64,000 nt of DNA, taken from IMG/VR virus record IMGVR_UViG_3300035204_001773, positions 1-64,000 of that record; one strand, given 5' to 3'. The notes under the pieces are model-generated. The model searched no databases. It was given only the letters and a program-made list of their open reading frames with translations, and had not been told where the DNA came from. A program made the position numbers and the translations under genes. Shown here one piece after another: positions 524 through 16,402 of this stretch; the stretch's first letter is position 1; each line of letters opens with the position of its first letter. The stretch comes from a virus.

Positions 524-655
524 TTATCCCCCTTTCTTCTTTCTTTTTGTCTTTTTTCTTTCCCGCTTTTTTCTTTGTCTCTCTTTTCTTTTTTCTTCGG
601 GGGTTGACTTGGGGTCCTTTTTTTTCTCTTTTTTTCTTTTTTCTTTATTTGCCAT
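524..655 (-). CDS. 43-aa very basic small protein
   Basis: Hand translation MANKEKRKKEKKKDPKSTPEEKRKERQRKKRERKKTKRKKKGG; exactly fills the gap between neighbours. Confidence 0.7.
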   Translation of the reverse strand: MANKEKRKKEKKKDPKSTPEEKRKERQRKKRERKKTKRKKKGG

Positions 656-657
656 AA

Positions 658-840
658 TTATTCTCCTCCGTAACTTTTGTGTTCGTGCACTTCCCAGTTA
701 TCTAAAATCACCTTGGCTAACCAAAGTTGGAATGGAATAGCTGCAAATCCCAACGTGCATACGATTGCAATCATCCAGAGAGCAATCTTTCCATAATAAT
801 CACTAAGTCTAATATTTAATCTTGATTTATATCTTTTCAT
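658..840 (-). CDS. Small membrane protein
   Basis: One TM segment; ATGA-coupled to the upstream gene. Confidence 0.65.
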   Translation of the reverse strand: MKRYKSRLNIRLSDYYGKIALWMIAIVCTLGFAAIPFQLWLAKVILDNWEVHEHKSYGGE

Positions 841-2625: not shown

Positions 2626-3234
2626 TTATTCTTGTAAGGGGTTTACTAAATTGGCCTGTAATTCATTTATATCTAAAATCATTCCATTTTTATCTGTAGT
2701 GAAACGGAACGCCGTCTTTTGATCCCCCGTGGCCTCAAAGACTCTCTCTTTAACTATAACTTCCTTAAAGGGTTTTATTTTTATTAATTTGATTGTGGCT
2801 TTTGTAGGTCCGTCGTCTCTTTTTGCGTATACGTGAACCGTTACTATATTTTCCCCTTCTACCACGCCCCGAAATGAAACGATCTCCTCATTAAAGGGGA
2901 CGACGACACCTTGGTCCTCTTCTTCTAAACTATTATTCCTACGTTTACCTAAGGCATCGTGGTCCAAGCTTATTAAGCTCCCTTGTCCGCCCTCTCTTCT
3001 GTTGAAAGACACGATGTGTCCCGAGGCCGCTTGAACATAAAGATCTAAATCATCTTCACTTTCACCTTCCCAAGTTAATACTACTTCATAAATTACGTTC
3101 GGTGGGCGAGATTTAATTTTTTGCTCCTCCGTCTTGAGGAGAAAAAGAATCGCCACTAGCATTAACAAGCAACAAAACAGTACGTCAATGAATGGTCTAA
3201 ATGTGAAAAATTTTCTATTCCCTTTATTTATCAT
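2626..3234 (-). CDS. ExbD/TolR/MotB-like TM anchor plus YfaP/DUF2135-like extracytoplasmic domain
   Basis: N-terminal PFIDVL TM with the conserved Asp; LTW...DDLDLYV...LDHD...NEEIV. Confidence 0.7.
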   Translation of the reverse strand: MINKGNRKFFTFRPFIDVLFCCLLMLVAILFLLKTEEQKIKSRPPNVIYEVVLTWEGESEDDLDLYVQAASGHIVSFNRREGGQGSLISLDHDALGKRRNNSLEEEDQGVVVPFNEEIVSFRGVVEGENIVTVHVYAKRDDGPTKATIKLIKIKPFKEVIVKERVFEATGDQKTAFRFTTDKNGMILDINELQANLVNPLQE

Positions 3235-3703
3235 GATAATCTAATTTACATTTTAAAATCATCAACTGAATTTGTAAAGGCAAACTGAAAACGATACCAC
3301 AAATCGTAGTATAAAAAGCCGTGTTAAGGCCAACTTTTAATCCAGAGACAATTTCACTTAAGGGCATTGTGCTATCTAAGCTCCCCTTCGTAGCAATGAC
3401 AAGACCGATTATAGTACCCAACAAACCTAGAGAAAAGAAGTGCTCCGCAGCAAACCATCCCAACTCAGCCCTCCTAGAGAGGACGAGGATTGCTTCTTGC
3501 TTTTTTTTCTCATTAATTCTATCCGCCAAATAACATAATTTTCCTATATATGCCGAAACAGAAACATACAGCATCATAATTAATATGGAAATATGTGAAA
3601 GATCATTTTTGATCACGGTTGAAACCATGCCCTTCATTTCTACCAATACCATTGCAGTGATAATTACCGCATTAACTAAAAACCATTTTGTAAAAGTCGT
3701 CAT
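3224..3703 (-). CDS. MotA/TolQ/ExbB proton-channel family protein
   Basis: LGLLGTIIGL ... GLNTAFYTTICG signature. Confidence 0.85.
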   Translation of the reverse strand: MTTFTKWFLVNAVIITAMVLVEMKGMVSTVIKNDLSHISILIMMLYVSVSAYIGKLCYLADRINEKKKQEAILVLSRRAELGWFAAEHFFSLGLLGTIIGLVIATKGSLDSTMPLSEIVSGLKVGLNTAFYTTICGIVFSLPLQIQLMILKCKLDYHDK

Positions 3704-3718
3704 AATTTTTTATTCCCT

Positions 3719-3901
3719 CTAACACCCGCCATTTTCGCTTGTTGTATCATGTTTGTCCCAAAAATCATCGTCAAAACTCCTCAAGAGAAGCTCTACTTCT
3801 TCAATAGCTTCCATCTCTACATCTTCACGTTGGACTTTACAAGTTTCTCGCAGTTCTCTTGCCATACTTAATACAATGTCTAGCGCTTCTCCTGTCAGCA
3901 T
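3719..3901 (-). CDS. Hypothetical protein
   Basis: ORF in tight operon. Confidence 0.6.
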   Translation of the reverse strand: MLTGEALDIVLSMARELRETCKVQREDVEMEAIEEVELLLRSFDDDFWDKHDTTSENGGC

Positions 3902-3904
3902 AAT

Positions 3905-4120
3905 TCACCTTTCGAAATAATCCGTATACGTGGGAAACTTAGAGTATTTACTAACCTTGGGGTAGGTTTTCGGCCTTATACAGGCGTTCATTTCCGCTTC
4001 TCTTCGTTTACAGACTTTTCTGGCTTGCCAATACTGCTTTAAATAAACATCTCCATTAAAAAGAGTATAGTAGCATATTTTTAATTTATCCACTAAAGTG
4101 ATTTTATCTGTAGGTGACAT
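3905..4120 (-). CDS. Hypothetical protein
   Basis: ORF in tight operon. Confidence 0.6.
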   Translation of the reverse strand: MSPTDKITLVDKLKICYYTLFNGDVYLKQYWQARKVCKRREAEMNACIRPKTYPKVSKYSKFPTYTDYFER

Positions 4121-16001: not shown

Positions 16002-16402
16002 TGGTGGAAGCGGCGGGAGTCGAACCCGCGTCTTTAAAGCCATCGGCTTAAATATACTACAAGCTTAGTCAGTGTTAATTTTCGTGCTTCATCACTGACA
16101 ACTACACACGAGGTTGGAGGCACTTTATTTATCCTAGACTCCTCACCCTTCCTAGTTTTTTGCTCGCTGTCGACGCCCTATCTCCTTAACGAGCATCCAG
16201 AGTAGGACGGGGCAGAACTAAGCTGCCAGCGCGGCTTCTTGGAAACCGAAACGAGCGAGAATCTCGTCCGCTTCTGCTACCGAAGGAGCCATGTCAACAT
16301 TATCGTTGGCATATATGTTTTTGACAGTTTTTTTAAGAGGCCAACTATCATCCTCTGCTTGCAATTTAGCGTAAGGTTCTAAATCGAATCCAGTACGCTC
16401 CC
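16002..16402 (-). ncRNA. ssrA: tmRNA
   Basis: 5' GGGAGCGTACTGGATTCGA; 3' GCGGGTTCGACTCCCGCCGCTTCCACCA; G3.U acceptor pair; tag ORF 16310-16218 ending ALAA*. Confidence 0.95.

Follow-up and report, generated by a model that had tools for sequence, protein, structure and literature searches.

The first 64 kb (64,000 bases, hereafter the window) of the 109,211-base IMG/VR virus record IMGVR_UViG_3300035204_001773, of which the CheckV completeness is 64%, come from a large, uncultured, marine tailed phage and encode two overlapping genes, A and B, whose two products are probably the core subunits of a small inner-membrane complex that belongs to the MotA/ExbB/TolQ class and is driven by ions, probably protons. 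An earlier reading of the window (hereafter the original prediction) had described a MotA/TolQ/ExbB-type subunit overlapping a partner whose transmembrane helix begins with PFIDVL and contains an Asp, and both open reading frames (ORFs) are indeed present on the minus strand, gene A at 3224-3703 and gene B at 2626-3234. They overlap by 11 nucleotides (nt; 3224-3234, minus strand), with the ATG of B at 3234 lying inside the 3' end of A, an arrangement of translational coupling.

Gene A encodes a protein of 159 residues, with a Shine-Dalgarno-like GAGGGA ahead of its ATG. It scores above the cut-off of the Pfam family MotA_ExbB (PF01618) (25.5 versus 22.9 bits, E 1.2e-5, residues 91-151), and a search of the whole record returns the same match. 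The same cut-off is also passed by A homologues of Rhizobium phages and bacteria, with a maximum of 38.2 bits. Hydropathy analysis revealed four hydrophobic segments (approximately residues 7-27, 36-56, 87-105 and 132-150), leaving a cytoplasmic loop of only ~28 residues and a C-terminus that ends nine residues past the last helix. To our knowledge it is the smallest MotA-type subunit, a statement that reflects those we have encountered rather than a survey.

Profile alignment using hhalign demonstrated that gene A is most similar to Escherichia coli TolQ (probability 87%, with residues 73-157 of A on residues 121-202 of TolQ), followed by ExbB (62%), whereas the alignment to MotA is poor (17%). 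The segment LGLLGT of A (residues 92-97; 3413-3430, minus strand), which contains the ring threonine Thr97, is paired with IGLFGT of TolQ, and AFYTTICG (residues 129-136; 3296-3319, minus strand), which contains Thr132 and Thr133, is paired with ALIATAIG. As these segments align on the motifs in the second and third transmembrane helices (TM2 and TM3) of TolQ and ExbB, they fall on threonines with an established place along the proton route, namely T145 and T178 of TolQ, and T148 and T181 of ExbB. Both motifs are highly conserved among 104 viral and bacterial A sequences, at G93 and G96 (99%) and T97 (91%) of TM2, and at T132 (91%), T133 (98%) and G136 (99%) of TM3; moreover, D34 in the first outer loop is present in 96% of them. 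Against NCBIfam, gene A gives sub-threshold ZorA matches only, the best one being to the membrane portion at the N-terminus of ZorA type 4 (E 1.2e-7, 31 bits against a cut-off of 500), and nothing is returned for B or for a third gene, C, described below. PHROGs has no family for A or B.

Each B subunit of 202 residues has a basic N-terminus with four Lys/Arg residues and one transmembrane helix, which a short linker joins to an outer β-sandwich domain. Hydropathy shows a single hydrophobic segment (residues 15-33) preceded by the four basic residues, which corresponds to an N-in topology, and the helix reads RPFIDVLFCC. This transpore helix (residues 13-35, RPFIDVLFCCLLMLVAILFLL) is encoded at 3130-3198 on the minus strand, with the GAC codon of Asp17 at 3184-3186. 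The public gene call for B in the record (P0001, 178 residues, also the ESM Atlas entry) begins at Met25, near 3162, and thus drops the cytoplasmic N-terminus together with the part of the helix that carries Asp17. The full-length N-terminus is conserved in the homologues, which supports the ATG at 3234 as the true start of B.

A conserved Asp was one of the points on which the original prediction had staked itself, and Asp17 is invariant in an alignment of 24 diverse viral homologues. In a wider set that comprises 121 distinct B sequences from viruses and bacteria, this column is Asp in 104, with exceptions in an alphaproteobacterial clade of 14 that places the Asp four residues earlier (FDPF[ST]V for PFIDV). 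By hhalign, Asp17 lies on Asp25 of ExbD and Asp23 of TolR, with a probability of only 5%; altogether, the alignments of the B helix to ExbD, TolR and MotB gave no significant result. The Pfam ExbD model (PF02472) covers only the helix of B (residues 14-46) and stays below its cut-off (14.7 versus 25.4 bits, E 0.032); at E <= 1 it finds only four of the 24 homologues.

The outer domain of B (residues 46-200; 2635-3099, minus strand) is predicted to be a periplasmic β-sandwich of the TerD type with YfaP-like features. The AlphaFold model of B, with a predicted local distance difference test score (pLDDT) of 81, has a helix at residues 13-41, a short linker and an all-β domain at residues 49-190. 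Structural similarity search against the PDB using VIA-align ranked 2qz7_B first (Z 9.9, root-mean-square deviation 3.9 over 133 aligned residues) and 2kxt second (Z 9.1, 139 aligned residues), the next match reaching a Z of only 6.1. Foldseek likewise returned the TerD-family structures 2qng, 2qz7 and 3ibz (E 7e-5, with a probability of 1.00, to 1.6e-4), and two among the matches listed from BFVD are named as TerD-like or tellurium-resistance-like phage proteins. The Pfam TerD model (PF02342) has no match in the record at E <= 1, nor in the Pfam scans of B and its 24 homologues, and TerD was not returned when the B-family profile was run against PDB sequences. Since the Pfam model fails on B, TerD is a likeness at the level of the fold and not of family membership. 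That profile search gave only short motifs of pre-peptidase and subtilisin C-terminal domains (E 0.04-0.06), for which membership was not accepted, and the weak Pfam PPC matches of five of the 24 homologues were similarly taken as a shared β-sandwich motif.

At the level of sequence, the outer domain seems to resemble the C-terminal part of E. coli YfaP. In a comparison with this single target, the B profile aligned residues 46-152 of B to residues 140-228 of YfaP by hhalign (probability 90.7%, 85 columns) and scored 20.7 bits in two collinear segments by hmmsearch. The two proteins share the motifs W-x6-D-x-D-L (W..D.DLD), P-x-G, E and G-x-Y (G.Y.V), and the nearest named cluster to B in the ESM Atlas is YfaP/DUF2135, with a score of 0.88. 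The Pfam DUF2135 model (PF09906, 48 positions) does not match B at E <= 0.1, and is not one of the 25 families listed at E <= 1 for the 24 homologues; it misses B because it spans only residues 199-244 of YfaP. The YfaP/DUF2135-like domain of the original prediction is therefore retained as an indirect likeness to YfaP on a TerD-type fold, without the Pfam DUF2135 assignment. The further claim that this domain is neither ExbD- nor OmpA-like agrees with the sandwich model and with the sub-threshold, helix-only match to ExbD: among the fold matches listed for residues 46-200 there is no ExbD or TolR chain, and no OmpA-family match was found for B at E <= 0.1 or among the listed families of the 24 homologues at E <= 1. 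The domain is not von Willebrand factor A (vWA)-like either.

The sandwich contains nine columns that are invariant in all 121 distinct B sequences: W55, D62, D64, L65, L90, D93, G96, E117 and G127. The acidic cluster of D62, D64, D93 and E117 on a TerD-type sandwich suggests a Ca2+ site.

As the original prediction had remarked, no TonB or TolA partner accompanies the pair; neither TonB_C nor TolA has a match at E <= 1 in the 109-kb record, which is 64% complete and so leaves room for a copy elsewhere in the genome. This bears on the reading of A-B as an ordinary auxiliary Ton energiser (exbB/exbD) that boosts TonB-dependent uptake of nutrients or iron by the host. The match of A to the MotA_ExbB family would suit such a role, and virome papers list viral exbB/exbD as uptake-related auxiliary genes (PMC11361711, PMC13065750). 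However, B lacks the periplasmic domain of ExbD and has a TerD-like fold instead, with the Pfam ExbD match below the cut-off, the record shows no TonB_C or TolA, and the genes of TonB and TonB-dependent receptors are not conserved neighbours in phage or bacterial loci, which together make this role very improbable.

Another point staked in advance was the linkage of the two genes in homologues. We assembled 52 phage loci, 49 from IMG/VR and three from Rhizobium phages, and searched them with a profile of A; a homologue lies directly upstream of B in all 52, at a spacing of -26 to +3 nt in most. Two loci have ~0.5 kb inserted between A and B (L014, ~3490-4000; L041, ~3465-3980). Compared with ten close relatives, B has a dN of 0.11-0.21 and A one of 0.25-0.32, while dS is saturated in 19 of the 20 comparisons, such that an exact dN/dS is not computable. 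Saturated synonymous sites beside a low dN indicate that A and B are real genes under strong purifying selection, and a pseudogene or a chance ORF is rejected on this selection together with the conservation. The family is also abundant: a 90%-clustered metagenome protein collection contains 821 B homologues at E <= 1e-3, and when a profile of the 24 diverse homologues was searched against representative clusters (50% identity), 2802 matched at E <= 1e-3, of which 720 at E <= 1e-30.

Clustering of the neighbours across the phage loci revealed only one further family common to the whole set, gene C. The A-B unit is normally a trio, with C after B in most homologues; in distant phages it stands immediately downstream of B, and in the marine clade closest to the window it follows on the same strand after 0.4-5.5 kb. 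Thus, the original prediction of a phage-encoded pair holds in that A and B are linked and borne by the phage, but it falls short of the usual trio and, as described below, of the chromosomal copies in Proteobacteria. A vWA protein is annotated 2.2 kb downstream of the cassette in Rhizobium phage RHph_I1_18 (L001, 6865-8298); it is notable in view of the published TPH-vWA partners described below, but is not a conserved neighbour.

The protein encoded by gene C has ~150-235 residues, with a pair of helices at the N-terminus and a G-[WY]-P motif that is conserved. Its model (pLDDT 81) comprises a helical hairpin, a small α/β domain and a disordered tail rich in Lys, Gly and Glu. Structural similarity search gave no significant match for the fold, the hits being to helical hairpins only (Z ~7); an OB-like fold of AB5 B-subunits was considered and found weak (E > 0.3), and no fold could be assigned. 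The loop between the two helices is strongly basic in bacterial C proteins, which would place the C-terminal domain in the periplasm beside the sandwich of B.

In the present phage, gene C was not found in the 109-kb record by tblastn and two profiles in all six frames (best E 0.07). Synteny BLAST against a relative (G001) places its expected site at 524-1222 on the minus strand. Two 64-residue ORFs directly precede C in that relative, and their homologues in the window lie at 1028-1222 and 837-1031. They are followed by a 60-residue single-helix ORF in place of C (658-840, minus strand), then by a Lys-rich 43-residue ORF composed almost entirely of Lys, Arg and Glu (524-655, minus strand), and then by a cytochrome c gene. 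As the flanking syntenic ORFs are present and other ORFs follow, the absence of C is not simply due to a contig end; the gene may have been lost, or may be located in the third of the genome that the record does not cover.

The cassette is not specific to phages, and is a chromosomal operon in many Proteobacteria. A scan of cellular genomes, one per species, found 182 species with a relative of B; among 300 evenly sampled species of Gammaproteobacteria, 33 have B at E <= 1e-8. When the 80 best bacterial loci were searched with phage-only profiles, A was found beside B in 66, C in 65 and both in 63. The bacterial cassettes are flanked by housekeeping genes (YciB, BolA, ribosomal protein S1, asparaginase II), and their A proteins are ~235 residues long, compared to ~160 residues in phages. 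At NCBI, the bacterial A is named 'MotA/TolQ/ExbB proton channel family protein', and B and C are hypothetical.

A FastTree phylogeny of 132 B sequences split into two clades with a Shimodaira-Hasegawa-like (SH-like) support of 96. The cellular clade has 69 proteobacterial sequences grouped by taxonomy, whereas the viral-type clade holds the 52 phage sequences, the window and ten contigs of metagenome-assembled genomes (L057-L061, L063, L064, L072, L076 and L100). These ten carry the viral-type cassette with a short A and are binned to unrelated phyla (Parcubacteria, Binatia, Chloroflexota, Gammaproteobacteria); as they sit inside the viral clade, they are probably phage or prophage DNA. On the FastTree topology, the phage copies appear to be a viral lineage of long standing, not one captured recently. 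Recent capture of the pair from a host was rejected because the viral copies form their own clade, as judged by FastTree and its SH-like support only.

One possibility is that A or B joins the host TolQR or ExbBD as a poison or substitute subunit, thereby altering the uptake routes of competing phages and colicins, or sustaining envelope functions after host shut-off. The B helix PFIDVLF is very like PFIDVM of ExbD and PLLDVL of TolR, A aligns best with TolQ, and the phage A is pared down relative to its cellular counterpart, all of which would fit such mixing. On the other hand, both subunits are always borne by the phages as a coupled pair, which argues for a self-contained complex, and the cellular relatives constitute a separate family alongside the ordinary Tol and Ton genes. 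We consider mixing improbable.

The alphaproteobacterial clade with the shifted Asp mostly lacks the other two genes beside B. Twelve of its 14 loci have no A or C within 6 kb of B (L062, L079, L081, L083, L084, L088, L098, L099, L102, L114, L132 and L133), while the other two (L092 and L130) keep both genes and yet have the shifted Asp too. Given these twelve proteins without adjacent A and C and without Asp at the usual column, the sandwich can work in another setting; it is also the most conserved part of B. Hence A might be a mere membrane anchor or chaperone without ion flow, and the Ca2+-binding-type sandwich of B the sole functional part, for instance by binding an envelope component. 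Such an arrangement would hardly explain, without an ion pathway, why the Asp and the ring threonines of A are almost invariant wherever A is present, and appears doubtful to much the same degree as mixing.

We therefore return to A and B as the core of an ion-driven complex. On the pattern of ExbBD, TolQR and MotAB, the complex would have two B subunits at its core, their N-terminal helices enclosed by several copies of A (five in the solved relatives). The proton route would run through Asp17 of B and Thr97, Thr132 and Thr133 of A, and every proton transfer would power a conformational or rotary step. As the linker between helix and sandwich has only ~7-12 residues, the sandwich of B must lie immediately against the complex on its periplasmic side, and C would be a peripheral third subunit in most relatives. 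The phage would express A-B in the host membrane from its auxiliary-gene region, with work on the cell envelope during infection as the most likely output. Tuning of the proton-motive force and exclusion of other phages are also conceivable; together with interference with host motors, these are the roles suggested in the original prediction, and they are guesses at this stage.

The short linker also lends itself to a different interpretation, in which A-B is a gated ion leak that lowers or tunes the proton-motive force of the host, with the sandwich as a plug or as a sensor of Ca2+ or another ligand. Such a leak could serve, for example, lysis timing, shut-down of host transport or blocking of DNA entry by a second phage. 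The linker would put the domain at the mouth of the channel, where the plug of MotB and ExbD is located, A offers hardly any cytoplasmic domain against which force could be exerted, the record has no C gene, and the TerD fold is a Ca2+-binding fold according to the title of 2kxt. By contrast, wasting the proton-motive force would be costly in free-living bacteria, in which the cassette is a conserved chromosomal operon amid housekeeping genes, and C is kept in most phage relatives. A leak is accordingly rather unlikely, albeit somewhat less so than mixing or anchoring.

Several observations weigh against an ion-driven A-B complex. In size, A falls far below all relatives of solved structure, whose cytoplasmic domain it does not have, the likeness of the B helix to ExbD and TolR is non-significant on its own (14.7 bits with Pfam, 5% with hhalign), and the outer domain is matched by neither the TerD nor the DUF2135 model of Pfam. 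Moreover, gene C, kept in most relatives, is absent from the 109-kb record including the syntenic site, and the twelve alphaproteobacterial homologues without an adjacent A indicate that B-like proteins can exist outside the pair.

Beyond the core complex, we tentatively propose, as a possibility rather than an expectation, that the cassette represents an undescribed class of ion-driven 5:2 motors, whose axle carries a membrane-proximal, Ca2+-binding sandwich of the TerD type where other motors have a domain directed at peptidoglycan or TonB. Phages would have long kept a miniature version for a specific envelope step of infection, such as excluding competing phages or maintaining an energised envelope once the host is shut off. 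If this is true, the present phage would show that A and B suffice without C.

The A-B pair lies in a long stretch of densely packed minus-strand genes that look auxiliary, including those of a GMP reductase, a methyltransferase, a small P-loop kinase, a radical-SAM/SPASM protein and a c-type cytochrome. The kinase, an APS-kinase/zeta-toxin-like protein of 145 residues (2187-2624), begins 1 nt past the stop codon of B and overlaps the gene of the 281-residue radical-SAM/SPASM protein (1345-2190); a kinase of this type is seen again near A-B in 14 loci of the marine clade. The cytochrome ORF (134-523) encodes 129 residues with a signal-peptide-like N-terminus and a haem-binding CSLCH motif. Elsewhere, the window encodes a family-B DNA polymerase, a ribonucleotide reductase, a DnaB-like helicase and a UvsX-like recombinase, in addition to four tRNAs and one transfer-messenger RNA (16002-16402, called by ARAGORN) with a 30-residue tag ANDNVDMAPSVAEADEILARFGFQEAALAA. 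The marine origin is seen in the close B homologues, which were found in metagenomes of Tara, JGI and ENA on contigs that reach ~190 kb in length. A comparison of the two ends of the 109-kb record for overlap gave no match.

In the literature on viral ExbB/ExbD, on the MotA/ExbB/ZorA/GldL family, on TerD and on DUF2135/YfaP, we found no description of an A-B-C cassette. Neither Pfam nor NCBIfam has a dedicated family for B or C, whose bacterial homologues are annotated as hypothetical proteins. The cassette is abundant, with 2802 representative clusters, many marine and rhizobial phages and 33 of 300 species of one proteobacterial class. Each newly understood member of this engine family has shown a new use of the same engine. 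The phage miniature should be convenient for structural work, and a knock-out in a culturable Rhizobium phage would provide a functional handle.

Viral exbB/exbD auxiliary genes resemble the present pair in being phage-borne matches to the MotA/ExbB family; they are mentioned at the level of annotation and read as TonB energisers (PMC11361711, PMC13065750). Where these papers mention ExbB, they describe no non-ExbD partner domain, trio or cellular relatives. The cassette thus cautions against reading viral MotA/ExbB matches as auxiliary genes for iron or sugar uptake. A closer parallel is found in the predicted TPH-vWA proteins, in which an Asp-bearing transpore helix (TPH) is fused to a vWA domain and a TolQ-like pentamer is the partner (PMC12204202, Mol Biol Evol 2025). 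They share with B the Asp-bearing helix, a periplasmic domain other than that of ExbD and a gene beside a TolQ-like gene, and thus set a precedent for such a helix on a non-ExbD domain; they differ in that the vWA partners occur in heterologous pairs, whereas here a single B gene has a TerD/YfaP-like sandwich (PMC12204202). That study does not mention TerD, and phages enter it only through Zorya phage defence.

The ZorA-ZorB pair of Zorya is likewise a MotAB-like pair outside motility and uptake, and ZorA type 4 is the best NCBIfam match of A. However, this match reaches only 31 bits against the cut-off of 500, A lacks the long cytoplasmic tail, B lacks a peptidoglycan-binding domain, and the cassette has no ZorC/D-like genes and is phage-borne rather than located in a defence island. 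TerD is a Ca2+-binding protein of tellurite resistance. Proteins of this type occur in soluble form in the cytoplasm, whereas the outer domain of B, which has their β-sandwich fold combined with the motifs of the YfaP C-terminal domain, is anchored outside the membrane.

Compared to ExbBD and TolQR, A has only 159 residues with four hydrophobic segments and without the large cytoplasmic domain, and the outer domain of B has the TerD fold instead of the ExbD/TolR fold. In addition, C has two helices, without a Pro-rich or long helical spacer and without a TonB_C or TolA domain, and the cassette lacks the context of TonB-dependent receptors or Pal. Despite these differences, the cassette shares its overall architecture with both systems: the gene of the channel subunit comes first and is tightly coupled to that of a single-helix partner, the channel subunit aligns with TM2-TM3 of TolQ and ExbB including the threonines, the partner has an N-in helix of the ExbD/TolR type with PFIDV and an Asp near its cytoplasmic end, and a third membrane protein follows in most relatives, as TonB and TolA do.

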